A stretch of 40,028 nucleotides of DNA, from the NCBI GenBank assembly GCA_030605095.1, contig JAUWBJ010000004.1, positions 1 through 40,028 on the forward strand. The letters run 5' to 3'. Shown here one piece after another: positions 1 through 34,873 of this stretch; the first letter of the stretch is position 1, and every line of letters starts with the position of its first letter. The DNA comes from Candidatus Omnitrophota bacterium. Lineage in GTDB: Bacteria > Omnitrophota > Gorgyraeia > JABMRN01 > RBG-13-46-9. The position numbers were made by a program, and so were the translations under genes. The notes beneath the pieces were generated by a model that saw only the letters and a list, made by a program, of their open reading frames with translations, was not told the DNA's origin and searched no databases.

Positions 1-3000
1 CAGAAGCTCAAGTCGCTTGAAGACAGAGATATCCTGCCGAAACTGGCAGAAGTAAGAAAAACAGAAAATGCTTTAGAAAAAGCTCATGAATACGAAAAGA
101 CCGGTGATTTGAGGAGGGCGCTAAGAAAAATCAACAAAGCCTTAGGGAAAAAGCCCAAGGACACTACCGAACTTCTTGCGGCAAAAAAAAGAATTGCGCG
201 AATTATCAAAAGGAATAGGATGGTTTCGCACGCTGAAAAATTATTCGATACTGATGACCTCGAAGCCGCTGAAAATGCACTCAAAGAACTTGAAGTTCAC
301 TTCTGTGGGCCGAATATAGAGGTAACAGAAGAGGTAATGCAAAAGAAGACAGGAAGCGATAAAGAAGGATTTAAAGCTTGGCAACAACTCAAAGTGTCGA
401 TTAATAATTTGAGGCAGCAGGCTGAAAAACGGAAAGAACAACTTAATAAGGCAGAACTATTGCTAGAAAAAGAAGACTTTGCCGGTGCAGCCGCCAAGGT
501 GGATGAAGCGACAAAATATGGCGGACCTTCAACAGATACGAATAGCCTACTTAAGCGCATAGAAGATACCGAAAGGCAGAAAGACAACATTGCCATAATT
601 GATACTTCCTTGGATGAAATTAAGGCCGATTTAAACGAGAACAAAATAGATATAGAAGACTTAGGAGATTATACCTCAAGGCTTGAAGGCCAAATGAAGA
701 AAATACAAAAGATAGACTGGAAAAATTACAAGCAGAAACTTGAGAAAAAATCCGGCCAAATACAGCGTTCTATAACTTCAAAAAGAAAATCAATCAGCAA
801 GATAAACCAAGGAAGAAAATCCCGCATTATACAGCGATTAGGCGAGTTGGGAAATGAACTTAAAACTCTTGAAGCACCCAAGGATATCGTAGCGCTTAAA
901 AAGAAGGTTGCAACACAGAAGAATGCAGTAAAAAATGTTCTATCTAGAAATATAAGGAAAGAACTTACTCTGTCGTGCGAGGTCTTAAAGGTAAAAATCG
1001 AATCCAAGGCAAACCAGGCAGTGGAGAAAAGGATAAAGGAGATTCCCGAAAGTCTGCACGCCGTTGACGAAGAAATTCCCGAAGCTCAAACCCTCGAAGA
1101 AACAAGGGCATTGAGAGAAAGGCTAAATGCGGTTAATAGAGGCATTAACCAGGTTTTACAGGAAGAAGAAAAGGAAAGGTTATTGGGTTTATATCAAGAA
1201 GTTTCGGGTAGGCTTAGCGAAAAGCACGAAGATTTAAAGAAGAAGGTAGGCAATGAAACGCGAAAAATAGAAACTGCTTTACGAACGTTAGACGGACAAT
1301 TTATGCCGAAATATGCAGATCTATCAAGGGAGGAATTAGAAGAACTAAAGAAAGAGATTGATGAGGTTCCTTCAACTGAAGCTCAGGAAAGGCTTAGAAA
1401 GAGCGTAGCTGAAGTTAGAGAATCTATAGATAATAAACTAGAATTGTACAAAAAGACTATAAGAGAGAAAAAAATAATTGATGAAATGAAAAGAACGATA
1501 CAAATACACATAAATGCAGTCAAGGGTTGGTACATCACCGAGCGCAATGGTATGTTAAACACAGGTGTAACGCCTGAGCAAGTGGCCAAAGGGGGATACG
1601 AACTCTTGAATAGATTAGACCGAACAGTACCTGTTTCAGCAGAATTTTATGATAAGTACGAAAAGGAATTGAATGCAGCTGTAGCAGCGAAGAATAAAGC
1701 GCTGGAAGAAGCTAAAAAAGAAAGAGAAACTTCCCGGCCAGTCGAAGAAAGACAGGTAAGGCAGGAGGCAGAGGAAGGGGCCTTAACATACCTCGCAAAT
1801 CTTGAGGAAAAAATAGACCAAGCAGCTTCTCCTTCTGAACTAAGAAAATTACAACAGGCCATAGAACATATACCCGAAGATATTTGGCAGTGTCTAAGCA
1901 GTGAGCAACGGATGGACATTAAAGAAGAGCAAGCGAGGATGAATAGCGATATCGACACCATATTGGCAGAGAAAAAAGAGGCCGCAGCTTCGGTTCTTGC
2001 GGGATTGCCCAAGAAGTATAAGAAGCTAAATGCCGCCGTGAGGAAGTTGATAAATGCAACGATGAGGGGTGATGAAAAAGCAGCAGAGGAGGCTCATGCA
2101 AAAATAGCCGAGGAGTACGCCAAGGTAGTGGAAGACATGGATCCTGATGATAAGCAGAAATACCAAGATGCTATCAGTTTCCAACAAAAGCCACGAGGGA
2201 AAACAGCATTTGTCATAACTCGGTTACTTGTAATCTTGGTTCCGCTAGTTGTGCTCGCAGCACTCGGGATCCATTATTGGCCTCAAATCAGCCCATATAT
2301 TCAAGAAGCTCTGCGACATTATCAAGTATCCATTGGTGCAAGTGGTTTGCATCAGACGGTGCAATATGCCTCAGTCATTCCTAATAACCTGCTTATAAAC
2401 ATAATCGGACTAATAATACTCGGTTTCCACTTCTTCTCAAAATATCTCGAATCCATGGAATTTTTGCTTTCCGAAGAAAATCCAACATTACACACGACCC
2501 CTAGCCCGCATCTGGGGTGGTTACCACTAGGGTCGCCATTTACAGCATTTTTGTCTGGCGTTCCTGCAGGAGGCAGGCAAGATAGGGAAAGTCAACCGGA
2601 TGATGACGCGATTGCGAATGGGGATGAGGTAAGCGGGGAAGAACTAAGCGGGGACGAGCTACTATATGCGGAGATTTATAAACTTACGAGCATTCTCATA
2701 GGCAATCCAGATAAAGCTGAGCGTCAGGAAGCCGGCGAAGAGCTATATCAAATTCGTCAGTCTCAACCCGAACTCGTTGATTCAAAAATCGAATATATGA
2801 TGGAGGAAGCCGGTAAAGTAGGGACCGAAGCCAAGGCAATAGGAAGAAGAATAGAAATCCTGAGGCTTGTTATTAAAGGCGTCTCCCAGCATCGAGTTGA
2901 GATAGATAAAGAGATCGGGAATGGCATGGTTTCGCGGTGGGAAGAAGGCAAAAGAAATATCAGCGCTCCGAACCTCAAAAAATTAGCCGACTACTTTGAT

Positions 3001-6000
3001 GTGAAACCGACTCTTATATATAGAGGTAAGACCTTAATAGAGGCGATAAAAGAGACTCGGCCGGATGCCAGAGGCGGAAGAATAAGAATCCTTCGCTACT
3101 CAAAAGGTTTCTTGCAATGGGAGCTCGCCCGAGAACTTGGAGTTACGCGTCAGGCAGTTACAGCCTGGGAAGAAAATCAACCTCTGAAACCGGCAAGCCT
3201 TTTAATATTGGCCAATTACTTTGGAAGAGACGAATCAATCTTTGTCGAGGAGCCGACCCTCATCTACAAAGGAAAGACATTAGTAGATGCTCTTAAAGAT
3301 GCCTCTACTATAGGCGAAAAAATAGTAATCCTTCGTTATTCAAAGGGGCTTAGAATAGAAGGGCTTGCGGATGAGACCGGAATTCCGTTGAAATATCTTT
3401 CCGACTACGAGAGGGGACTCAAACCGCCTGAGCCGGAAGACCTTGCCATACTTGCCGATTATTTCGAACTAGATTTGACACTTCTCGATAAAGCGGCTAG
3501 TCCGGAAGAGATAGTAATTTTATTGATTAATAAGCTTGAAAGGGCGAGGATCGCCACTATGATGGAGAGGATAGTCCGGGCCTTAAACTCTGTCTCGTTG
3601 AAAAAGACATTCATGGCGTATGACATATATTATACCTCGCAAGCTATCCGAGATAAGATAGCCAGATTCATGCCTTTCATTGAGACCGGAAGCTATCCTG
3701 TCGGCATAACAATGAAGAACGGTGTTACGCTGCTTCCTGATAATATGCTGACAAATCCGCATGTTATGAGTCAAGTAGAGGATAAATACGGTGACAATTT
3801 CTGGTCTGACGCACAGGCTACTGTTGATTTCCTCACCGAAAGCGACCCTCTGCCGGAAAAAGCCGATTTAATTATGGTGTTGAGAGGCGAAGACCTTGAA
3901 CTGGCGCGTGAGGCAGCCAGGATGTTTATGGCGGGCAAGGCAAGCAAGATACTTCTTTCGGGAGGTCAAGGGCAGCGTATATCCGAAGACCGGGAGAGCG
4001 AGGCTGAGAGATATAGAGAAGAGATAAAAGCTGTAATAATGGACGAATACGGTAAGGATGAATTCGATGCAGAAATGATTATAAGAAACAATGTCTTAAT
4101 TGTCGAAAGAGAATCTGATAGCCTTATTTACGATATGATACATAGCCTATATACATTAGAAGGGGAAGCATGGTGGATAGATCCTCCCCGCTCCCGATCC
4201 GTTATATTGATGCAGACACCTCTATTACTTAAGAGGTCAGCAGCTACATTTTTGAAGCAGTTCCCAGAAAACGTTACATTGTATAGACATTCATATAAAA
4301 CTATAAATCTTGCCGCTGAATCCGATTTAATTAAGAGGGGCGAGATAATAGCCGAGGCTTGGGATGAGCTGGAGAGATTGGAGAAGTATGGGCCCGGGTC
4401 CAGCGGCACTGGTGATGCCGTCGGGGTGAGAATGCCGGCTCAAGTCCAGGCCTTCAGGGATAATGTTACCCCAATATTGGAGGCCATGAGGACGGCTCTA
4501 TTCTTTCATGAGATGCTTCACGTTGTGTTGAACTCGATTTACTCTGAGAGTCCGGAGGATAATGCTGTATTAACCGCTGTGGCTGGATTGGGCAGCGGAT
4601 TTGACTGGTCAAGGCTACGCTCTGAACTCGGAGTAATGGGATGGCAGAGAGGTGAAGAAAGTCTAACCGAATATAGAGTGAGATTGTTGAATGAGGCGCT
4701 CGCAAAGATTCTGGAACTCGAATACTTATCGAGACGCGACTGGCCGACCGGGGATTTCAGCGCAAAACTTCAGTCCCTTTACAACTTACTCGGCCTTACC
4801 GACGATGATTCACGCGACTTCTGGATGAAGAGGCAACCAACGGACACCGCTCTCACCGGACTCCAGCAGGCCATACATGATACCTTCATGTCCCATGATT
4901 TGCTAAACCCCCATCGCCTCGCCGCGATTGCGAATGGGGATGAGTTAAGCAATGAGGATGAGCAGCTAAGCAAGGATATTTATATTCTTTCAGACACACT
5001 CATAAATTCTTCAGATAAAGCCGAGCGTCGGAAAGACGGCGAACGGCTATACCAGATATGCAAATCTCCGGAGGTTAATCCATTCTCATTAATCAAATAC
5101 ATGATGGGCAAAGCTGAGACGATAGGAAGAAGGGTGGAATGCCTGAGATTTATCAATAACCTCACACCGGAGGAGCCTGAGAGTGCCAGTGGGGTTAGCG
5201 CAGACGTGATTGAGAAATTGGAAAACGACGGTTATGTTATCTATCCTCCGGGAGCCCTCTTTAAATTAGCTGAATATTACAAAATAGACCCGATCCTTAT
5301 CTATAAAGGTAAGACTTTGATGAATGCCATAAAAGATACTGCTCGGGATGATATAGGTGCGAGGATAAGGATTCTCTGCCATTCAAAAGGTAAAACGCAA
5401 GAAGAACTGGAGGATATTCTTGGTGTTAACCGAGGCTTCGTTGCACAGTGGCAAAATAACGTCGTAAGACCTAGCCTGCAATATCTTGCAAAAATGAGCG
5501 AATATTTTGATAAAGAAGTTATAATTATATACAAAGGGAATACACTAACAGAGGCCCTTAAAAGCGCCGCTACTGACGGCGAGAAGATAGATATTCTTCG
5601 CCACTCAAAGCTCCTTACGCAGATAGAGCTCGCGTCTGGTATCGCGGTTAGGGGGATTTCAGAATCTACTATCTCAGGGTGGGAAAATAATATTATCCCG
5701 CTCAACGTAGAAGATTTCCTCATTGTTGCCGATTATTTTGATGTAGATATTACGCTTCTTTGCGGAATGGAGACGCGTGAAGCCATAAAAGCGGCGCTTA
5801 CTGTAATTGCCATCCCAGAGGTAGATTACCGCAGAAAAGATAAAATAGCCACAATTTTACATAAAATCGGCATAAGTTCCAAAACAGGCAGGCCCTTGGA
5901 AGACGGTATCTTTGCAATTTCACAGGACGAGATGGATAATATTACAAGACATGTAGACCCGGCTGAAAGAATAGGCTTACATGAATATACATTAGGAGGA

Positions 6001-9000
6001 GGCCTTGTCCTTCATACCCAGGATGCGAGTGAAAAGGAGGTAAGGGAAGGTTTAGCGCACGCCTGCAACAGGACTATATTTACGGAGGACTGGGATGAAG
6101 ATACTCAGAAATTCAACGGCGATACGGCAGCCTTTTTAGATAGCACTATATGTATATCGGATTATGACTTTTACGAAGAACTAAAGGTTTTATTCAACAT
6201 TCCTGTAGCGTGCGTGGAAGCCAATACCAACGTAGAAAAGCAATATGCCTATATCTTAGATGAAGCATTAGCCAAACTCACCGTCTATGAATATCTTAAG
6301 AAAGAAAACACCCCTCTTACTCGTAGAGAAGGCGACAATCTCACCCAGCTTATAAAAATATTCGACCTTGAATATGACGAATCCACCTATAGATATACTT
6401 CAAAGACTCTCGAGGGCTTCAACTCCTTACGACAGCGAATCTTCGACGCCCATGAACTGCACGTCAAGCCCATCCTCGCCGCGATTGCGAATGGGGATGA
6501 CTTAAGTGATGAGGATGAGCAGCTAATTTATATTCTTTCAGACATACTCATAAATTCTCCAGATAGAGCTGAGCGTCGGAAAGCCGGCGAACGGCTATAC
6601 CAGATATGCCAATCTCGTACTGAAATTCTTGACTCTTTGATTAATGACCTGATGGACAAAGTTGCTGGTGTAGGAAGAAAAATAGAAATTCTGCAATACC
6701 TTAATAACGTTACACAAGTGGCGCTTGCGGATGATATTGGGGTTACAGTATCGGTCATTGAGGACTGGGAAGAGGAGTTTGAAATACCTGCACAGGAGGA
6801 TATCGATAAGATAGCCGATTGCTTTGACATGGAGCTTGTATCCCTTAATCCCGACGATGACAGCATAACCCCTGACTCTCAAGGAAAAGACAAAGGGCCA
6901 ATAATTAAATCTATCTTAATCGCCATCCTTTCCTTCTTATCATTATCAGTGCTTCTTGCTATGAAGCCTCAAGGTGAAATAGGCTGGGCTCTACCAGTAA
7001 CCCTAATACTCCTTACTATACTCCTTACTGCGGTAATTTATGGAGTGATTTCTGCGATTGGAAGAATTGTTAAGAGAAAGCAGATGATGTATCTATTCAC
7101 AATGCCTGAGACTTCTAAATTTAGACCGGGTGAACAAATACTTTTTGCTAGTTGTGATACCTACGTTGACAGATTAGACGAAGATAAAATCGGTACATTC
7201 CTTGAAAAGATAGCAAGGACTATAGAAAAAGCTGCTAAAGTTTATGAAAAGAGAACCGGAAAAAAGGCTCTTGTCGCTGCGCTTTCCTATGCGACGACTA
7301 AACAAGGAGCCAGGTTATCACGCGACCCATTTGTACGGTATATGGAGAAAGCAGTTGAAATTGTAAGGGAGAGGAGCCCGAGGATAAATGTTTTAGGAGT
7401 TACTCAATTTGATGCCGCTATACGTAGGAAAGTATTTTTGGATAAGACAAAATCAAATTTTGCTCCCAAAGGTTTTCCGGTCAATGTATTTGTATTTCCT
7501 AATTCACAGTCTTTTGAGATTGCAAAAGATGTGATGGATTTCTTTAGGTCCAACCCTACAATTGGGGAAAAGTCAGAGTTACCCGGCAAGTATTTAGAGG
7601 AATTAGAAAGAATTGCCGAATCCAAGCAGGCGCGCATTGTTATTCCCGAGTCAACAAATCCGCTGGTGTTAGCGGCTGTGGCAAGATTTTTGAAAAAAGA
7701 ATTAGGCGAGGTTGTGCTTTTAGGGAAAAGGTCCGAGATAATATCGGTTGCATCGGAAAAAGGAATAAATATACGAGAAGCCGAAATTATAGACCCTGAA
7801 GAAGATCCTGAAGAACTTAATGAAATTGTAAAGTATTATTGTGAGAGACAAGCTCTCGGCGAGAGGACTAAAAAGGCTAAAGAGGTTGCAAGGAGAATTT
7901 TGAAACGTAAGGTAGTTCGTTACGGAGCAGGGATGGTGGCTTTAGGCAAGGCCGATTGCATGGTTGCAGGAAGTGTGTATGATTCCGCTGATGTTATCAC
8001 GGCTATCAAGATGCTTGTGGGGATGGATGAAGATGTTGAAACTCTATCAGGTGGCTTTTTGATGTGTTCGCAATCTAAAGATGTGGGTACTGACGGAAAG
8101 TTAATCCTTTCTGACATTGCTTTTACAGAATGTCCGAAAGACGCCAAGGAACTTTCCGATATTGCGGTGAATACAGCTCAGGATGTAGCAACTTATATCG
8201 GCCCTAACGTTAAACTGGCGTTTGTCTCCGGTAAGAATGTGGAAAGTAGCAAAATAAGGGAAGCAATTGAAATCACAAGAGAGGCGATAGGTAATAAATT
8301 TGATATAGATGGTTCAATTACCATAGATGGCCCAATAGGATTAGATGAAGCGCTGAAAGGTGGATATAATGCGATAATATTTCCCGACCTGAATGCAGCA
8401 AATAGTGCCTACAAGATGCTACAGGGGATATGCAAGTTTGATGGCTTGGGCATAATTTCCGGTGAGTGTTCTAAACCTGTGTTTGATATGTCGCGTGGAG
8501 CCGACATTAATGAGATTTATAGCTCGATGGTCCTGGCATGTTGTGGGGTAAAAGCCAAAAGCCCAGATGATGTTCAGACTTTAATCAACACCATCGAATC
8601 CGAAAGCGGCATCACAACCAAGTCGCAGAAGCGCATACAGGCGGCCGCCCAGACACTCAATAACCTCCCGCAGTCTGCAAACTTCCTGGAATATGGTGTG
8701 CATCTTGTTCCTCAGTCTGTGTTGGATAAGATTGCGGATGTGCTTCCGTCAATTGAAGTGGATCCGGATAATCCGGCGAGAGGCCTTGCCATGAAAAGCG
8801 GCATTATTCTAATCAGCAAATTTGAAGAGCCAATAACACCGGCAGAGAAGGAATATCTCCGGATGAGGTACGGCACTGACTGGATTAGTGCAGATGAGCC
8901 TACGAAGAAAGCCTGGCGGCAGGATATGCGCCAGTCCGTCTTCATCCATGAAATCGACCACCAGATATTTGATACAATCCTCAAGAATAATCCAGAATTA

Positions 9001-12000
9001 ATAAAGAATGCCCTCCTTACGCAAGTGGTAACCCATGTGAAGGGTACATCCTTGTTAGGCGTTACGGATAAGAATGAGCTGATAGCTCTCCTCAAAGACT
9101 CCGAAGAGCTAAAGAGTCTCAATAAAGAGTTAGCCAGATTCGACCAGTTAATGTTCCTCCGCGACCTCCTTGATGTTAATGGCAAGATTGCCTTTGATGC
9201 AAGCGCCAAGCCAGGCGATGAATGGCTCAAACTCAAAATTGTATTGGGTATTAGAGAGATTACACGGACCATCATAAGAGGAGACAAGTCAAAAGAAATC
9301 ACCGGCCTCTTCTCATCGAATAACAGTATCTTTGCCCTCATGGATGAAATCGACAGAATCTCTTTTGAGAATGGCCTCATGTCCCCTGGCCTCCTGCATG
9401 CGATTGCGGATGGGGAGATCAACGTAGCACTTATAGTAGATAACTACATCAGTTCAAATCCTGAGATGGCAGATTTAAGAAGTGCGCTCGTTGAAATTTT
9501 GGAAATCTGCAGGGACATCGACGTTTTAATACAAGTTAGGGACATGCTAAAAGAAAATCTCATTACAAAGAATGATGTTAGGCATAGGTTAATTTTAATA
9601 TCACATTCTGAGGATTATAAACCCGATGAGACGTTCGAAGCTATTCACAGGATGTTATCAGAAGGATTAATTACAACAGAAGATATCGAAACTAAATTAG
9701 CTCCTTTGGCAGAAAGAGCCGAACATTCTGCATTCTTAGCCTTTCAAACTCTTTACCATATGCTCAAAAGGGCCAAAGAGGAGGGCGTAGACAAAGAGAC
9801 TGCATTCGAACGTTTGCAAGCAGTTGCTGACGAAGTCGGTGACGACGCAGGCTATGTGTTCCATCAAATATGGGATAACTGGATGAAGTATTGGAGTGAG
9901 CGAAGGCAAGCTTATGCCATGACATTTGATGATATCCCTACTTATATACTTCCGGTCGCACAAAAATGCAAGGATTGGACGGCCTTTTATCTCAGTGTCC
10001 AGGAATATGTAATTAATAAAGAAGAATTGTTAAAAGTTTTGTCACTTCCGCTGACAGGCAGAAAAGCTGCTAAAGCATATGAACTTAAGGAGGAATTAAC
10101 GCGAGATTATCGTGAGCCCGCAATTTTTACAGAGGCTGAATTCGATGAATATATCATACCTATTATACAGAAATCAGGACTGCCTATAAGAGACCCTGTC
10201 AGGTATGTTAAGAATATGTTAAAGGATGGGTATATTACAAAACCTCAAATCCTTACTCATCTTGTTCCAATAGCAAATAATGCGCTGAATAGTACCGGGA
10301 AAACCTTTGGAAATATATATGCAATGTTAAATACAGGGTTACTTACGGCGGACCAGATAAAGACATTGATAATACCTACGTCTGAGAATGCCAAGAGAAG
10401 AACCGGCATTGTATTGAAACAAGCATATGAGCTTCTGTCGGGAGAGGAAGAAAGCACTCTGCCCCTAAGTTACATAATGACAGTATCGGATATACCAGTA
10501 TTAGGAAACCTGCAAACATCCGATGGATTGCGACAGGAACTAGATAAGTTTAAATCGAATATGTTGGGAAGTGGGGCCACCAAAGAGGCAGTTGTAAGCT
10601 ACCTCCATGACCTTCTTTCCTTAGATTGCAATAAAGAGAATATAACACAATATTTCTTTATACTGAGGTCCCGGATTGGCAAAATTAACGCAGACCTATT
10701 TGTTGCACGATACGAGCCCCTTCGGAATAAATTGGGCGATGATATATCTTGGCTTATACCGGCATTTGCTGACCTCTTTGGAGTTGATACGGCTAGGGGA
10801 AATACACGGTTCATATCAAACACAGAATTCAATAGAATCCTTGATAAAATCGAGACTGGGTTAGAAGATATCAAGCAATTAGTAGAAGTAAGTGTGTCCA
10901 AAGAACCAATATTATATAATCTTCTGCTCGCAAAACTACTTATGTACGGCAATATAAAGGAACTTGTATATAGAGATGAATCTCCATATAGAGCAACATT
11001 AGCGTTAAAGAATTTGAATGTGGATGCTTTTGTGAACATCAATGACTGGCACAATGTAAGGGATGCTCTCCATAATATACGCACTAAGGCTAGCAGTACC
11101 AGATGGTCTGCATTTGGTGCGAGGATAAGGGATAAAATCGGATATTACGTAAGCGATATCCTGGCCGACGATACTCTTGTCGAGATATATGCAGATGAAA
11201 TAGCTCAGGTGCTGGGCGATATCTTTGGTAGAAACGGAGGATTCGAGGAAGAATTTAAGAATGTCTACTATATGAAGGGAGAGGGTATAGAATATAAGCT
11301 ACTTTCGCGAAATGCGGACGAGCTTAAACTCGGAAACAGGACAGGAGACTGCACGGCAACCAATAGGCAAAATTTCTGGTCATTGCCGACATGGATGTCT
11401 CACCTTGGCTATCAGATACTTCAAGTATATAAAGACGGCAGGTTTGTTGAAAAGATGCATCTAATCATAACGGATAGCGTAGGCGTCCCGGGTATTACAA
11501 TAGACGCACATGAAGCGGTGCCGCAGACAGTCGAATCCGGTGGACGCCATGTATCCGGTGATCCAAAATTGATACGAACCCGCGAGGAGATATTCCAGGC
11601 CGGTATGTTAATGGTAAAAAAGATTGCATCACGTTTAGGAATACCAAAAGATGAGATCTACGCAAACGGAATTAGTGGAAGAAAATGGATAAAGAAGTTT
11701 TATGAGGAAGATTTTACTACAACGACTCATCTGCAGCACTTTAGGTTCTTGGACGGTGTTGCTCCTTCAAAGTATTTCTTTGATAAGGAATTCCATCTAC
11801 CATTTCAGGATCCAAAGATTTATATTCAAACCTTCGGCACAGGACAACTTTCCCCGGAGGTGCGAGAAGCGGTATCAAGAATAGAAGAGCAGTTGAACGC
11901 ATATATAGAGCGCCATCCTGAAAGCGAATTAGCCATTGCTGTTAAAGAAGGAGATAGGGCACGTGCTTCGCAGCTTATAGCTGAGGATGAGAATTTTGCC

Positions 12001-15000
12001 AAAGAGATTTCAGAGTTTACAAATGTTCTGGATGAGCAATCTCCTCCCATGACTATACAGGATGTCTACTCCTTGCTTTATTCGCCAACATTACGTGAGG
12101 GAAATGCGAATGCGTTTGTTATTGATGACGGTAGCCTTGAGGGCTATGAATCAAAATTGATAGAAAAGGCCTCAAGCGCTTCTTGCCACATAGATACGCG
12201 GCTGGCAGCTATTAGTGTGCTGGGGATGTTTTTTGATAGTGCGAATGCGCTGGGGGCGTTGAAGGAGTTGGTGGGAGGAGATACCGGATATCCACGAGAC
12301 AGTGATGAAGACAAACGTATTCGAGCAGTTGCGAAACATCCCCCGGCTGAAACTGACGACGACACAGCTTCTGCCTCATGGACGTGCGATCCAGAGGCCG
12401 AGGGAACCCTGCCACCAGGCATAAATAAGGATGGGAGAGTCGTCCGAGAACAGGAAATCCTCCAAAAAGCAGATGCCGAAGACGGCTTCACCATACACAA
12501 GATTACAGGTGTGAATAAGGAATACACCATCCGCATCGCGGACTCAATCCTGTCGGATGGCCATTTCCGGGCAATCTTACAGCGTGCACTAGCCCAGGCT
12601 GAGAAGGAAGGCCTCGACAACCGCATCCCCCTTACCTTCATAGATGCAGACTTTATTGTAGACTCTGACGGCAATGCCCACCTCGCAGGCGACTGTAAGA
12701 TGAACAGCATCGTCGCCCTCAAGAAACGCTACAGAGCCATCCTCCAAGCCGTAGAAGACCAAATCCCAGGCGCCAGCGACATCCTCCTCCAGGTCCTAAT
12801 CGAGCATGAACTTAGGCATGAAAACCCCAACATCACAGATAATGAGACGCAATTGACTCAAATAGACATCGCCCGCCTCCGTGCTTTACTCGGCGAAGAT
12901 AATCAAGTAATTGTTAATGTTGCGCGTGTTTTTGATGAAATGGAGATTATATCTGACAACTTTGTTGATATGCTCTTGCAATCTGTTGTACGTTCGATCT
13001 ATGATGAAATTAAAGAAGAAACAAGAGAGGATATTACTTTGAGTCAAGTTTTAACGGAAGGCGATGTTTATTGTCTCAGAAATGAGATTGGAAATGTTAG
13101 CGATATTAAGAATAAGCTGCGCGATGAGATAGGTCAATTTCTTTTTGGAGCAAAAGAAAATGAGGCCATTCCGTCTCCGGAGGAAGAAAAGGTTGTTGAA
13201 AATGCACTGTCTTTAGTCAAAGAAAAGATCGAGTCTATGGGTTATTCGTATTCGCAGCCCAGGATTATGTACGTTAAGCCCGGTGTGTTTCCAGACATAG
13301 CCTATTTCTTTAGATCTTATAATACAGTGGTTCTTCAAGTTGGTCAAGACAGTAGGAATTTGGAAGGTGATGTCATACATGAAGTCCTTCACGGAAATCA
13401 GCGTGGATTTGCACCAAGAGTTCTCTCTGATGGAATGACAACTTACATTCAAGCGATGATTCTGATGGAACGCGACGGAATTCGAGATTTCTCATTAGAA
13501 GCTTTTGGCGAAAATCTTATGAGAATTCTGGATGGATTTGATGATTCAGAGATAGGACCGTTTAGTTATCCCTATGAAGTTTTAACAATAGCAGTAGCCG
13601 TGGATTCTCTTGGACTTAAACCATTGGCAGATGCCTATTTCAACGGCGATTACACGGGTATTGAGGGGAGCATGCATAAAGAGAAATGGCAGGAATTAAT
13701 TGATTTGGCTAACGATTTTGAAGGCAAAGAATATGAAGAACTAGACCCGTATTTAGACAGTGTCTTGGAAATTTTCGGTCGAAACGCCATAGAAGCACTC
13801 GGGCAACTCGGCACGCCGGAGGCAGCTCGGGTGCTAACTCGTTTTGTTAAAAGTGCAAGCGACAGAACATCTGAAGTTGTGCAAGCTGCTATTCAAGCTT
13901 TGCATACCGGAGAGTATGTCGATAAGATGGACACGCGCAGTGAATTTGATGAAAACGGCAGAATCTCGCAGGTAATCGACAGACACAGCCGCGTAATCGA
14001 GAAATATGAGTATGAGGGCGACACGGACGAGATTAAAAAGGTGACGCTCATGAATGTGAAGACGGGCAAGACGGTGGAGCTAGTAGTGAGCGACCCCGAT
14101 GCGCCCATATTTACTTTCGATGTTTACGTTGATGGTGAAAAAATTGAACTTCTGCAACCCCAACCCGATGTTTATCAGGAGGTTTCTTTAAGAGTTATCT
14201 TAACCACTAGAGAATATACAATTGGTAGGATTAATTTGGGAGATTTTCAATTTCAAGACGTAGGAACAACTATATTCAATTGGCTGGCTAATCACGCATT
14301 GAGAAATGGTGTAAATAAAATTGCAGTTAATTATACAAGTAGGCCAACCATGTTTCATATTATGCAGTCTATTATTGATGAGAATCTGGGCGATATTTCT
14401 ACGGAAGAAGGTACGTTTTATGCAGAGACAAAAGATGGAGGAGGTATACAAATCAGAGTTAGCAATGGAATTGTTGAAAGCTGTGACATAGAAGGACTAG
14501 AAAGAAAGACATTTGAGATCGAGGATAATAGATACGTTAAAATAGGCGGCGAAATTATTGGCGAATTATTGTCGTTTCCGGCGATAGAAATAAAAGGGAC
14601 ACCCAACCCCTTTAACATATGGATCGACCCATCCGGCGCAATAACGCAATACTGGGCGAAGAGCCAGGAGTTGAGAAGGAGGATTTACAGAGATGGCACA
14701 CAGGTAGATTTTGTCTATGATGGCGATGAGCTCACCGGCGTAACTGGCACATATGAGGCGCTCGATAATGCGGCGAGAGATACTGAGATGGCGGAAGTTT
14801 GTCCCGAATTCCGCCTGCTCGCAATAGAGGCGCTCGCCGCACTCGGCACGAAGGAAGCAGTAGAGTCTATTATGGATGTGATTGAGAGCGTGGACCCAAG
14901 CAAAGCTGCCGAAAAGGAACTTTGTAAAAAAGCATGTCAAGCTCTTCTGGATATGACTCTGGCTGCCGGCCAGAACCTCGGCGAATTAATATACATGCGC

Positions 15001-31240: not shown

Positions 31241-34200
31241 ATGCCAAAACTTAAACTCCGAAGCAGCTACAAGGTAAAAGGCGACCAACCTCAGGCCATA
31301 AAGAAACTAACCAAAGGTATTTTAGATAATAAAAGATATCAGACTCTGCTTGGTGTAACAGGCAGTGGAAAAAGTTTACCTCCCGATGAAATGATTTTAA
31401 CATATAGACATATGGAAGATAAATTTATTCCTGGGTTAGAGCGTATCGGAATTTTTGTTGACCAGTTTATAAATCAGGATAATGCATCGGTAATTAACTC
31501 GCACAATACACAAACAATCTTATTAGACAGTGACAAAATCAATTATTATGCTTTTAGTTTAAATCCCCGCACTTTACAAACCGAAATTAAACCTATTTCC
31601 GCTGTCCATAAACATCATTCTCCCAAGAGTATATGGACGGTCACCACCATCTGTGGCCGCTCAGTCCGCATTACAGGTGATCATAACTTGTGGGTCTTGC
31701 GAAATGGTAAGTTAGCACTCCTTAAAACTCGAGAAGTGAAAGAGAGTGATTATCTACCTATCCCATTAAACCTGCCTCACAATACAGAGGCACTCGACTC
31801 GACTATGCTTTTAGATACTTTAGGTAATGAAAGGCGCATATTTGTAAATGGCGATAGACAATCTTTGAATTTAACCGGTCAGGATATGTGGAAGTTAGGA
31901 AAAGTTATTCGACCAGAATCTCAAAACTCTGGATATCAAAAACTTTGGAGAGCTGTCATAGAAGGTGAACGTCTTTCTCTTTTGGATGCAAGAATGCTGG
32001 AGTCGCAAGGAATATATCTTGGACTATCGTCATTAAAAATTGGAGTAAAAAACAGTGATAGAAAAATACCTTTAGAAATGCCTATCACCGATAGTTTATT
32101 AGAACTCGTTGGCCATTACTTGGCAGAAGGACATGCAGAGGACAGATATTTTTTAATATCCTGTAATGAGACCGAGGTGCAAAAACGTTTAGAGAAGTGT
32201 TTTAAAAATCTAAAGCTTAGTTGGTTTGTTAGGAGCAATGGTTATGATTACCAGGTTTCATGCAGTATTCTGACGCGTCTTTTCAAAAAATGGTGCGGAT
32301 CAAATTCAAAAGTAAAATGTCTACCGGATTTTTGGCCACAGTTAAACCAGTCGCAGCTTAGCTTATTACTATCCGCTTATTTCACAGGAGATGGTGGTGT
32401 TGAAGGTGATGACGTGACAGTAACTACAGCCAGTAAGCGATTGGCTTCGGATTTGGTATATGCCTTGACTAGATTTGGTATATACACTCGCACGTCTAAG
32501 CGATTTAAGCGAGCAACCAATTCTGCACACAAAGGAAGGCTTTATCATAGACTTTCCATCTCAGGCGTTAGTCAGTTAAGGCTGTTTACAAATCAAATCA
32601 ACTTTCTTTCTGATCGTAAGCGTCAGCAGCTCGAGCTTATTATTGGAAAAGAAGAAAATACCAACGTAGATATTATTCCTATATCAGGAAGAGAAATTAA
32701 GCGATTACGCAGAGAGCTTTGTTTATCGCAATTGACATTGGCAAGGCAGAGTGGATGTGGGGAATCATTTATATCAATGATAGAGTCCGGAAAGCGAAGG
32801 TTATCACGAAATTTGTTCAAAAGGCTTATAAGAAGTTTTGAGATAAAAACAAATGAACTGAAGCGATTCGACCTTTTAAAAGATATCTTTACCTTAAAAC
32901 AGCTTAGTTTAGTCTTCTGGACCGGGGTGAAGTCAGTAAAACAAAAGGCCAGCGACTCCGAATGGGTTTACGATTTAAGTGTAAAAGATAATGAGACTTT
33001 CTATGCGGGATTTGGTGGCCTGTTTGTCCATAATACATTCACCCTCGCGAATGTAATCGAAAAGATTAATAAACCAACCCTTGTAATAAGTCCAAATAAA
33101 ACATTATGTGCCCAGCTCTATGCTGAGTTCAAAGAATTCTTTCCGGAGAACGCCGTTGAGTATTTCGTGAGTTACTATGATTACTATCAACCCGAAGCGT
33201 ATATTCCGCAAGCCGATATGTATATCGAAAAAGATGCCTCCATTAATGATGATATTGACAGATTAAGGCTTTCGGCTACGAGTTCGCTTATCTCGAGAGA
33301 GGACGTTATTATTGTAGCCAGCGTATCGTGCATATACGGACTCGGCTCGCCGGAGGATTACAGGGAACTACTTCTTATGCTTCAAAAGGGAGATAGTTTA
33401 ACAAGAGAAGACCTTTTAAAGAAACTGGTAGAGATTCACTACGAGAGAAACGATATCGAATTCCAGCGGGCAAAATTCAGGGTAAGAGGCGATATAATAG
33501 AAATTTTTCCGGCCTATTTGGGGATAGCCTACAGAATAGAGCTTGATTTTGATAAGGTCGGGACGATAAAAGAGATAAATCCTCTTACCGGAAAAACAAT
33601 AAGAGAACAGGAGAAAATAGCAATTTATCCCGCCAAGCATTTTGTTACTACAGGCGAAAGAATAGAAAGAGCAATAGAATCCATTAAAAAAGAATTAGAA
33701 GGACAGCTTGCCGGATTCAAGTCCGAGGGCAAACTTTTAGAGGCGGAAAGATTGTCAACCAGAACGAAATATGACATAGAGATGCTACGGGAGCTCGGAT
33801 ATTGTAACGGGATAGAAAATTATTCAAGGCACCTGTCCGGAAGAGCCCCCGGCTCAAGGCCGTGTTGCCTTATCGATTATTTTCCCGACGAGTTTTTAAC
33901 CGTTATTGACGAATCTCACGTTACAATCCCGCAACTAAGGGGTATGTATAACGGCGACAGGTCGCGCAAAGAGACACTGGTCGAATACGGCTTCAGGTTA
34001 CCCAGCGCCCTCGATAACAGGCCTCTTAAATTTGAAGAATTTACGGAGGTAACAAAAGAAATAATATTTGTTTCGGCGACCCCCGCCGAATACGAACTAT
34101 CGGAGAGCAGAAGTATAGTCGAACAGATTATACGGCCTACGGGTTTAATCGACCCGCCAGTTGTTGTAAAGCCGACGGAAAATCAGGTAGACGACCTTAT

Positions 34201-34873
34201 CAAAGAGATAAAAAACCGTGTTGATAAAAAAGAGAGGACATTGGTTACGACGCTAACAAAGCGCCTTGCGGAAGAACTTGCCGAATATCTGGCGGAAATG
34301 GGTATAGCAGTAAGATATCTCCACTCGGAAATAGATGTTATAGAGAGGGTGGAAATTTTACGCGACTTAAGGCTCCGAAAATTTGATTGCCTGGTAGGAA
34401 TAAATTTATTAAGGGAAGGGCTTGATTTACCGGAGGTGTCTCTGGTGGCGGTTCTGGACGCTGATAAGGAAGGATTCTTAAGGAGTCGTACATCCCTCAT
34501 ACAGGTCGCGGGAAGGGCCGCGCGAAACATAAACGGAACTGTTATAATGTACGCGGATAATATAACCAAATCGATGAAGCGCGCAATCGATGAGACGAAT
34601 AGAAGAAGAAAGCTCCAACTCCAGTTTAATCAAAAGCACAATATTACGCCCGAGACAATCAAGAAGGCCGTCAGAGAGAGTATCGAATCGTATAGAAAAG
34701 CGAAAGAACTTATAAGAGACGTTACCGGCGAATACGACGACGAATATGAATTGAGGAATGTTATAAACGACCTTGAAGGGGACATGGGCCTTGCCGCGAG
34801 GAATCTGCAATTCGAAAAAGCAATAGTATTCAGGAACCAGATTAAGGCATTGAAGAGAAAACTTAAAAGATGA
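31241..34873 (+). CDS. uvrB: Excinuclease ABC subunit B precursor containing an intein (656 aa after splicing)
   Basis: [71 protein letters not shown]. Confidence 0.96.
31373..33034 (+). mobile_element. 554-aa intein with LAGLIDADG homing endonuclease and XRE HTH, inserted in the UvrB Walker A motif
   Basis: N-junction GSGK|SLPPDE; block B ITGDHNLW; LVGHYLAEG and LSAYFTGDG; block F VYDLSV; C-junction FVHN|TFTLAN. Confidence 0.93.

Follow-up and report, generated by a model that had tools for sequence, protein, structure and literature searches.

A 17 bp repeat in a giant Omnitrophota gene codes for the predicted tail of a zincin-like domain at module boundaries

Introduction

The window analysed here, the first 40,028 bp of contig JAUWBJ010000004.1 from a Candidatus Omnitrophota bacterium (GCA_030605095.1), opens within a giant gene in which a 17 bp sequence occurs four times. 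This raises the question of whether the sequence is kept as DNA, as a crossover point for the shuffling of modules, or for the peptide that it encodes. As a whole, the explanation given a little better than an even chance is that the 17-mer codes for the tail of a zincin-like domain at a module boundary, that a young tract lies behind it, that the tail-coding stretch acts as an in-frame patch, and that the protein is putatively cleaved there.

Results

Four in-frame copies of the 17-mer

A re-scan recovered the four copies reported by the first-pass annotation: GCGATTGCGAATGGGGA at 2608, 4924 and 6481 (J1–J3), and GCGATTGCGGATGGGGA at 9400 (J4). All are on the + strand and are direct, with none inverted. 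Allowing two mismatches, 5 matches were found in the window, against 0.02 in window shuffles. The fifth (18155, 2 mismatches) is inside a gpsA-like gene and was taken as a chance occurrence. In the whole 1.37-Mb genome, only the four copies are present at up to one mismatch, and a six-frame search for the peptide AI[AS][ND]G[DE] returned the same four sites and no others. All four are in frame 1 of the giant ORF, at residues 870, 1642, 2161 and 3134, and encode A-I-A-N/D-G-D/E. As had been claimed, the same codons are used (GCG ATT GCG, then AAT or GAT, then GGG) although the DNA upstream has diverged, being only 30–42% identical in a protein-guided alignment.

The proposal that every copy marks a module boundary stands for J2–J4, which close diverged modules, but copy 1 has a different segment upstream. 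This segment is 3' of two hydrophobic stretches (translation read by eye) and is paralogous to a segment of contig C61. The features of the gene are listed in Table 1. The 15 ORFs downstream of it are housekeeping genes (gpsA, hom, thrC-like, valS, uvrB, groEL and others), and the syntenic locus of genome G011 also has a giant gene beside gpsA.

Table 1. Features of the giant ORF and their positions in the window
Feature	Position	Strand	Detail
Giant ORF, >5709 aa (5' end cut by contig end)	1..17130	+	
Block also present in a second large ORF of this genome, on contig C61	2458..2606	+	149 bases, 88%
17-mer J1, AIANGD; starts first linker-HTH cassette; without zincin-like domain upstream	2608..2624	+	
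Cassette 1: acidic stretch, conserved linker helix (…NPDKAERQEAGEELYQI…), XRE-type HTH_3 repeats	2608..3490	+	
DUF218-like cargo domain, module 1	3859..4254	+	via P0020, the homologous part of which matches Pfam DUF218
Zincin-like copy 1, ends with J2	4333..4941	+	HEMLH 4507-4521, LNE 4687-4695
Young tract, paired with 6475-6617	4918..5069	+	134/143 aligned bases identical, one 9-base gap
17-mer J2	4924..4940	+	
Cassette 2: linker, HTH_3 repeats	4924..5518	+	
Zincin-like copy 2, degenerate, ends with J3	5893..6498	+	HACNR 6058-6072 replaces HExxH
17-mer J3	6481..6497	+	
Cassette 3: linker, one HTH_3, then two hydrophobic segments (aa 2304-2354)	6481..6838	+	
PTA_PTB (phosphate acetyl/butyryl transferase) cargo, module 3	7597..8538	+	E 5e-60
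Zincin-like copy 3, ends with J4	8680..9417	+	HEIDH 8947-8961
17-mer J4, AIADGE	9400..9416	+	

The HTH_3 repeats of cassette 1 form 3 stretches. The DUF218-like domain of module 1 itself has no Pfam match at E<=0.01.

A rare zincin-like domain precedes J2–J4

The modules that end at J2–J4 share a repeated domain of approximately 200 aa with an HExxH motif and a conserved Glu about 65 residues after it, often with HEAT repeats N-terminal to the domain. With a local profile, three strong copies and no more are detected in the window ORF; they end at residues 1647, 2166 and 3139, corresponding to J2–J4. Across 21 aligned copies HExxH and the Glu hardly vary, H59 and E128 being conserved in at least 90%. 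Within the window, copy 1 alone (HEMLH at aa 1503) has the full canonical residue set. Copy 2 is without HExxH, and copy 3 (HEIDH at aa 2983) has K at the position of the Glu, with an E adjacent (LNKE, 9118-9129).

Pfam and NCBIfam scans of the domain gave nothing above cut-off; below threshold, Pfam returned DUF6782, SprT-like, M78 and M48. A profile search against the PDB gave no match below E 0.19. The phrog_87 'metallo-protease' profile matches 4 of the 21 copies at E<1, the best, for one copy, at 4.5e-6, and is also matched by the genome's own bona fide Pfam M78 protein (E 6.6e-5). Among 1.84 billion representatives, 21 proteins contain the domain at E<=1e-3, and it was found in 7 of 301 and 5 of 401 sampled genomes, both counts including the source genome. 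These comparisons indicate a domain that is rare, apparently undescribed and present in a few lineages of one bacterial class.

In both the representatives and the sampled genomes the domain is seen only within giant or cut-off ORFs. The open frames are 742 to 28,499 aa in genomes and 121 to 4780 aa among representatives, four of which are <360 aa. Several zincin-like domains can be interspersed among unrelated catalytic domains of one polypeptide, the cargo in relatives consisting of ordinary enzymes (GH130, PGM, LpxC, URO-D, NDK, malic enzyme and others). The order DUF218-zincin-AIADGD-linker-HTH recurs in P0020 (33% identity, E 3e-64).

The AlphaFold model of the domain (pLDDT 87, pTM 0.84) runs from a strand and a helix through two strands to the HExxH helix and then to a Glu-bearing helix, an order in agreement with the zincin core as outlined in PMC5512222. 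HExxH is in helix 50-71 and E128, the putative third zinc ligand of the gluzincin type, is in helix 118-141, with extra helices between them. Foldseek searches with two models returned nothing at E<=1e-3. The wide search with VIA peaked at a Z of 6.0, against the tool's noise bar of approximately 8, and the zincins among the top rows were all below this bar (anthrax lethal factor 5.6, PprI 5.1, MATCAP 4.4). The PprI superposition has an rmsd of 2.8 over 83 residues, at that same sub-threshold Z.

The tail is conserved as a peptide

In 36 distinct copies the domain ends in a conserved tail, …L-I-x-P-G-L-L-x-A-I-A-S…, and the sequence downstream is unrelated; this combination identifies a true module boundary. 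Positions 1–3 of the motif are A in 29, aliphatic in 35 and A in 31 of the 36, with L in 28 at -2 and P in 23 at -5. The conserved part is therefore L-L-x-A-I-A, while positions 4–6 are variable. The alignment shows the 17-mers of J2–J4 to be the last six codons of the predicted zincin-like domain. J1 has the six motif residues only, without the conserved L-I-x-P-G-L-L part, and a duplication breakpoint is therefore a simpler explanation for it than a retained cleavage site.

Relatives encode the tail with varied codons. The 17-mer was in none of the 15 domain copies read in other genomes and is absent from six other domain-bearing genomes. A scan of 400 further genomes of the class gave single matches with up to one mismatch in 8, compared to 4 control hits; these 8 are in a different frame or in small ORFs that lack the zincin-like domain. 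The first-pass annotation's view of the DNA string as a conserved junction signal is not supported by these results: relatives keep the peptide only, the outcome that the annotation itself had named as refuting. Of the motif codons elsewhere, GCG and ATY are somewhat over-used (GCG for the first Ala in 7 of 12 and for the second in 6 of 13; ATA in 1 of 10).

The reading preferred here is that the tail is a putative site of cleavage. It may instead only terminate the structure of a spacer domain in a giant protein that is uncut there, with the DNA identity due to paralogy and gene conversion; this is a real possibility, although an improbable one on balance. The partly inactive zincin-like domains would then serve as scaffolds along with the HEAT repeats, or have different substrates. 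Inactive copies retain the tail, as seen in window copy 2 and the clade of G041, G076 and G132, which lack HExxH, and this is compatible with a purely structural role too, as are the short helix (residues 196-204) that the tail forms in the model and the weak fold and family evidence for a peptidase. However, most copies keep HExxH and the Glu, and the finding of the domain, in the sets searched, only in very large or cut-off proteins also argues against a spacer. The tail is modelled with a confidence of 63-71, against approximately 95 in the core, yet is among the best conserved stretches, as is more commonly seen with functional linear motifs.

Blocks of different ancestry meet at the 17-mer

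The near-identity of about 140 bp with one 9-bp indel, followed by divergence, that had been noticed after copies 2 and 3 was confirmed (Table 1). This young tract, in which the two stretches are 94% identical, begins 6 bases before the 17-mer; past it the J2/J3 identity drops to 53–70%. At identical residues of J2/J3, codon identity rises from 11/29 upstream of the junction to 30/32 just downstream. At J1, the homology with C61 (51 aa, 75% identical at the protein level) reaches as far as 2606, two bases short of the 17-mer; homology with J2/J3 begins at 2608. The C61 branch is also visible in source-run contigs. The three upstream zincin-like domains represent three old clades, members of which are found elsewhere with unrelated downstream modules. 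Together, the J2/J3 codon jump, the J1 breakpoint and the old clades show in-frame module exchange at the boundary. Because the upstream domains are old and diverged, homology-dependent exchange stops there and cannot extend further left.

The suggestion of a crossover point is therefore upheld in that blocks of different ancestry meet at the 17-mer, but not in regard to the DNA string as its signal. As judged from these alignments, the site is a mosaic breakpoint and not a general DNA signal, and the J1–J3 identity is attributable to peptide constraint plus a young tract, duplicated or gene-converted, of the linker-HTH cassette downstream.

The sequence after copy 4 is unrelated to that after the others, as the first-pass annotation had it, with 19–26% amino-acid identity. 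The flanks of J4 are likewise unrelated at synonymous sites, and the young tract does not account for its codon identity, for which chance has a P of about 0.001 to 0.02. We infer that the J4 codons reflect peptide constraint with site-specific codon preference, or a very short conversion.

It is very improbable that the 17-mer is a DNA-level recombination signal, either the target of a site-specific recombinase or part of a shufflon-like reordering of modules. Four in-frame copies at boundaries, with homology breakpoints at them or up to 6 bases away, could be read in this way, as could one contig of run X4, from a related population, in which a J3-side tail is joined to J2-type cassette sequence at a depth of 4.2. 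The direct orientation of all the copies is against such a signal, as is its absence from the 15 boundary copies read in other genomes and from the six other domain-bearing genomes. No recombinase family is present among the 15 downstream ORFs scanned, and source-sample contigs span all four 17-mer sites with no joint found there. Spontaneous chemical cleavage or deamidation at Asn-Gly or Asp-Gly is hardly credible as the function of the motif, since N-G or D-G, earlier noted as labile, is present in all 4 window copies but in only 4 of the 36 distinct tails (N-G in 3, D-G in 1), in which positions 4–6 vary.

Discussion

Predicted processing of the giant protein

The preferred reading, which is plausible although somewhat short of probable, is that the zincin-like domain is a predicted processing metallopeptidase that would cut the giant precursor within its own tail or beside it. 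Cutting might be in cis, or in trans by active copies. It would release the metabolic cargo domains and, for this gene, the XRE-type HTH cassettes too, the precursor having hydrophobic, probably membrane-spanning segments. The short stretch that is obligatory in every tail would also have been the in-frame patch where cassettes were joined.

More speculatively, the HEAT-plus-zincin units with their L-I-x-P-G-L-L-x-A-I-A tails may be the missing processing system of the Omnitrophota-type giant multi-enzyme proteins, each unit cutting at its own tail, with inactive units cut in trans. The polyprotein would then yield enzymes and, in this gene, release membrane-tethered XRE factors, with the tail DNA as a swap patch. 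If the tail-coding stretch is such a homology patch, this would explain the rapid module turnover between related genomes.

Comparison with known systems

The polyvalent proteins of phages and conjugative elements have, in the account of their zincin-like domains by Iyer et al. (2017, PMC5512222), HExxH…E domains between unrelated enzymatic domains, one to several per very long polypeptide, with autoproteolytic processing predicted and no zincin-like clade belonging to a classical peptidase family. Compared by this description, the likeness is in the several zincin-like domains interspersed in a long polypeptide, whereas the cargo here is ordinary metabolism rather than anti-host effectors. 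The giant gene here is chromosomal, beside housekeeping genes such as gpsA and hom, and its domain, usually placed after HEAT repeats, has a conserved C-terminal tail. A polyvalent protein on a phage, prophage or conjugative element was rejected, the 15 downstream ORFs all being housekeeping.

ImmA/IrrE (PprI) metallopeptidases (Pfam Peptidase_M78, COG2856) cut XRE-type repressors (ImmR, DdrO), and HTH-COG2856 fusions are frequent. The likeness consists of HExxH with a later Glu, XRE-type HTH_3 in the same polypeptide, here in the order HTH…peptidase, and the shared match to phrog_87. The spacing of the Glu and the extra modelled helices before it differ, however, and a scan of 19 related proteins showed an HTH partner in just 2 (P0013, P0019), to which BLASTP alignment adds P0020. 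Membership of Pfam PF06114 Peptidase_M78 was rejected (best E 0.037, in 1 of 21 copies, far below the gathering score). The genome's true M78 protein (contig C15) scores 35.8 bits to Peptidase_M78, and hhalign of A4 against it gave a probability of 2.4% with a single-sequence template.

In MARTX toxins an internal cysteine protease domain releases the effector modules by cutting after Leu at short conserved sites between them, and strains exchange modules at these same boundaries. The giant protein here is similarly modular, with a putative internal protease at inter-module sites. MARTX differs in catalytic class, in having one protease per protein and in being a secreted toxin, and there is no homology.

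A further likeness is to the Omnitrophota giant proteins ('Archaeovorins', multi-enzyme metabolic clusters; West-Roberts et al. 2023, bioRxiv 10.1101/2023.11.21.568195; bioRxiv 10.64898/2026.06.07.730766), with which this gene shares a giant ORF, ordinary enzyme domains and HEAT repeats. In their passages on these proteins, the papers present ORFs that run from thousands into tens of thousands of codons and tile the domains of ordinary enzymes, together with HEAT scaffolds and membrane-spanning segments. Cleavage into products is proposed, the candidate processors named there being C39 and S8 peptidase domains only. 'HExxH' is absent from the two texts as available, and their matching passages make no mention of a repeated zincin-like domain or tail.

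Implications

In the relevant passages, these papers leave open whether the giant proteins stay whole or are cut, and in one the unknown cleavage points blocked piecewise structure prediction. A repeated protease-like domain with a boundary tail provides concrete candidate cleavage sites and a candidate enzyme, and the tail gives a practical rule for dividing giant proteins into modules for annotation. The locus is also a base-resolution record of module exchange, in which old domains are retained and cassettes downstream of the tail undergo replacement or homogenisation. Should the cleavage idea be wrong, a new domain family and ordinary intragenic gene conversion remain. If it is true, the megadalton precursor would be a bacterial polyprotein giving ordinary enzymes.

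Module boundaries and the domain tail

The 17-mer occurs in two forms at four places, J1 to J4, all on the + strand and all in frame 1 of a single giant ORF of 5709 aa, the 5' end of which is cut by the end of the contig. A search at ≤2 mismatches bears out the positions reported in the first-pass annotation, with 5 matches against 0.02 in shuffles of the window; the fifth lies within a gpsA-like gene. The window is the entire contig of a 1.37-Mb assembly (41.6% G+C), and the rest of this genome has no further copy of the 17-mer DNA or of its peptide. The peptide is AIANGD in three copies and AIADGE in one. Pfam identifies XRE-type HTH_3 repeats right behind copies 1–3 of the motif. The third interval has a PTA_PTB domain, and HEAT repeats follow later in the ORF. 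The genes downstream of the giant ORF are housekeeping genes. The UvrB gene of the window carries an intein inside the UvrB domains (Pfam Intein_splicing, LAGLIDADG_3 and HTH_3).

Self-comparison of the giant ORF gives a plan common to each interval: the motif, an acidic stretch, a conserved linker helix, 1–3 HTH domains, a variable cargo, an HExxH domain of ~200 residues and then the next motif. With a profile of this zincin-like domain, the giant ORF gives three strong copies and no more; they end at J2, J3 and J4, and none lies before J1. The 17-mer encodes the closing residues of a conserved domain and sits at genuine module boundaries, where homology blocks of different age meet.

Coordinates of the features in the window and of related loci
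Feature	Position	Remark
Host ORF of J1–J4	1–17130	
Left flank of J1	2458–2606	149-base block
Counterpart of left flank in the same genome	C61:7522–7670	second large ORF
17-mer, J1	2608	
17-mer, J2	4924	end of domain copy 1, residue 1647
17-mer, J3	6481	end of domain copy 2, residue 2166
17-mer, J4	9400	end of domain copy 3, residue 3139
Near-identical tract at J2	4918–5069	
Near-identical tract at J3	6475–6617	
Source-run contigs, bridged	2529–7388; 7367–9877	
Joint in X4 contig	6499 joined to 5047	
Weak zincin-like match	3610–3750	aa 1204–1248
HExxH motifs after J4	12799–12822; 13372–13395; 15484–15507	first at aa 4267
C-terminal domain common with G011	16500–17127	
Fifth 17-mer match	18155	gpsA-like gene
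UvrB gene with intein	31241–34873	
Giant gene of G011 (L054)	G011:C91:156–15221	
gpsA match of G001 (L052)	G001:C1:1034821–1035897	

In the giant ORF, a weak zincin-like match to the N-terminal half only (hmm 2–47, E 0.006) lies ahead of a DUF218-like cargo, and the same half-domain followed by DUF218 is present in the related proteins P0006 and P0007, as though a split zincin-like copy enclosed or flanked the cargo. There are also three more HExxH motifs after J4, of which the first (…DAHLAGDC…LLQVLIEHELRHE…) is part of another repeated segment, found several times in the related protein P0012 and possibly another type of protease-like spacer.

Across 36 distinct full-length domain copies (partial hits, one copy cut by a record end and two exact duplicates being left out) the tail consensus is (R/I)-E-N-D-L-I-(T/N)-P-G-L-L-(D/E)-A-I-A-S-(G/S)-(D/N). 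Ala is found at position 1 in 29/36 and at position 3 in 31/36, with an aliphatic residue between them in 35/36; Leu at −2 (28/36) and Pro at −5 (23/36) are also frequent. The sequence behind the tail is unrelated between copies. The AlphaFold model shows the tail as a short helix whose confidence is clearly below that of the core. Chemical lability of Asn-Gly and Asp-Gly, suggested earlier for this site, does not describe the domain family, since N-G is present in 3 and D-G in 1 of the 36 tails. Many tails read N-P-G-L, and 2A-like skipping has an 'NPG' motif. This candidate was rejected: G is at −4 in 17/36 only, and P does not rank among the five most frequent residues at the position that follows. 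No bacterial example of 2A-like skipping is known.

Codon identity at the motif

Four identical codon sets have a probability of about 8.6e-8 under independent codon choice. Chance codon identity by this measure was set aside because the null is wrong for paralogues. At identical residues the flanks of J1–J3 agree in codon at 44/66, 34/59 and 54/80 (58–68%), so that agreement at 6/6 in the motif is unremarkable. For J1–J3 the synonymous conservation described in the first-pass annotation is thus expected. It does not extend to relatives: the 15 tail copies read in other genomes have varied codons and the 17-mer is present in none of them (0/15).

In those tails GCG encodes the first Ala in 7/12 and the second in 6/13, compared with a local GCG usage of 15–42%, and Ile is ATT in 5/10, ATC in 4/10 and ATA in 1/10. 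GCG and ATT/ATC are over-used relative to local usage at the A-I-A tails of loci L022, L023, L024, L029 and L032 and of G018, a genome of the same class, and so across unrelated genomes; the numbers are small and the copies non-independent. At J4 the codon agreement of the flanks is at chance level (0–2 of 7–9, nearest segments; 11–16 of 39–47 overall), while its A, I, A and G codons are the same as in J1–J3, with P of about 0.001 under the codon usage of the ORF and about 0.02 under site-specific frequencies. For the J4 codons two readings are kept, a preference for certain codons on top of peptide constraint, or conversion over a very short length. Among their synonymous codons, GCG and GGG are used least in the giant ORF. 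A rare-codon pause was rejected, GCG being common in relatives that also use it at the tail, as was an internal start at the SD-like GGGGA, behind which the sequence has no in-frame start codon.

Mosaic breakpoints at J1–J3

The near-identity of copies 2 and 3 seen in the first pass was reproduced, with 134/143 aligned bases the same and a single gap of 9 bases. Outside this tract, base identity between J2 and J3 is 37–57% in upstream windows and 53–70% in downstream windows. The young tract therefore begins 6 bases ahead of the 17-mer. Codon agreement at identical residues is 11/29 upstream, 6/6 in the motif, 30/32 over the next about 45 residues and 13/19 further on.

In a tree of 39 domain copies, window copy 1 groups with two copies of G106 (support 100/100), copy 2 with degenerate copies of G076, G132 and G041 (100/99) and copy 3 with the related protein P0011 (93/80). 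By this tree the three window domains belong to three old clades, which explains why J2/J3 homology begins only at the conserved tail. The relatives in these clades have different tails (AIAAGG, AIASGE, AIANGY, PISNDD, AIAADA and AIANNE) and unrelated downstream sequence. The J2 junction is old, as its arrangement of DUF218, zincin, AIADGD, linker and HTH recurs in P0020 at 33% identity. J3 looks to have been derived from the J2 junction.

The left flank of J1 is 88% identical over its 149 bases to a block in the second large ORF of the same genome, which is at least 2206 aa long and runs off its contig, C61. The block encodes NPTLHTTPxPHLGWLPLGSPFTAFLSG…QPD[DE]3 and has unrelated sequence on both sides. 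The homology to C61 ends two bases ahead of the J1 17-mer, where the J2/J3 homology starts, and source-run contigs have the same branch point at J1. The block is a second short mosaic block.

Relatives, read data and the syntenic locus

As the first-pass annotation proposed, relatives were searched for the 17-mer: of 400 further genomes of the class, 8 have a single match (≤1 mismatch) versus 4 control hits; these matches are in other frames or in small ORFs without the zincin-like domain. It is absent from all six other domain-bearing genomes. Module-order variants were not found in contigs of the probable source run, which bridge the region without differences or joints and therefore confirm the module order. 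Runs X2–X4 cover the stretch only in part at 85–99% likeness. One contig of X4, from a related population (depth 4.2, shorter side 83 bases), joins the J3-side tail to the J2-specific cassette, a joint that fits continued exchange in the shared tract but is a single low-depth record at 85% likeness.

In G011, of the same family, a giant gene of 5021 aa occupies the syntenic place upstream of gpsA. Only the last ~210 residues are common to it and the window gene, at 54% identity, and this C-terminal domain has no Pfam match. The module content of the locus therefore has a fast turnover. In G001, of the same genus, neither the zincin-like domain nor the final 1000 residues of the giant protein have a match, and no giant gene adjoins gpsA. 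The G001 gpsA match is in two pieces, residues 1–126 and 122–329, ~75 bases apart.

Distribution and assignment of the zincin-like domain

Among 1.84 billion representatives, a search with the profile found only 21 proteins with the domain at E ≤ 1e-3, of 121 to 4780 residues, the short ones being taken for fragments. It is present in 7/301 sampled genomes of the class and 5/401 of the phylum sample, this genome being counted in both, and in 0/10 genomes of the window's own family. Domain-bearing open frames in the genome searches are always of 742 to 28,499 codons, the longest being that of G018, which has seven strong copies and others that are degenerate. A related-locus search for the domain found one metagenome locus and, among genomes, only G018 itself, and a repeated search in the order of G041 brought no additions. 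The cargo of related proteins consists of ordinary enzymes (GH130, phosphoglucomutase, LpxC, URO-D, NDK, ribulose-phosphate epimerase, malic enzyme, PPDK and DUF218). HEAT repeats are often directly ahead of the domain in the related proteins scanned, and HTH_3 is found in only 2/19 of them (P0013 and P0019), and by alignment in P0020.

HExxH and a Glu ~65 residues later are nearly invariant across copies. An AlphaFold model on 21 copies (pLDDT 87) has a strand, a helix, two strands, the HExxH helix and a later Glu helix, in agreement with the order of elements in the passages on the zincin core in PMC5512222. Evidence of family membership beyond motif and model is otherwise weak, and the domain is therefore named only zincin-like, without a subfamily. 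There is no match over cut-off in Pfam or NCBIfam, and Foldseek gave nothing at E ≤ 1e-3 with both models. The VIA wide search gave anthrax lethal factor (Z 5.6), PprI (5.1), Certhrax (4.9) and MATCAP (4.4), amid helical noise and below the bar of the tool. The nearest ESM Atlas clusters, at 0.90, are without a name, and LPD23, at 0.88, is no more than a lead. The best PDB profile match has E 0.19; Pro-Pro endopeptidase matches at E about 0.4 are aligned out of order. The 'metallo-protease' phrog_87 matches 4/21 copies at E<1 (4.5e-6 at best) and also a Pfam-M78 protein of the same genome (E 6.6e-5); with this single protein the domain has an hhalign probability of only 2.4%.

Possible roles of the domain and its tail

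The zincin-like domain is tentatively seen as a putative processing peptidase cutting at its own tail, because it is restricted to giant or cut-off proteins and placed after each cargo, and because the tail is conserved yet less rigid. The link of ImmA/IrrE-type zincins to XRE repressors was counted as a further ground. So were the interspersed zincins of polyvalent proteins (PMC5512222), as a precedent. The main rival, a non-cleaving spacer, is only slightly less probable. In the window, copy 1 alone is canonical at all residues; HACNR replaces HExxH in copy 2, and the Glu position of copy 3 is occupied by K next to an E. The text passages of two giant-protein papers (10.1101/2023.11.21.568195 and 10.64898/2026.06.07.730766) name only C39 and S8 peptidases, and neither cleavage sites nor a repeated HExxH domain are mentioned in them for these giant proteins; the supplements of the papers may list domain hits.

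The stretch that encodes the tail has probably acted as an in-frame patch for cassette exchange, and probably limits conversion tracts, being the one sequence required at every such boundary.
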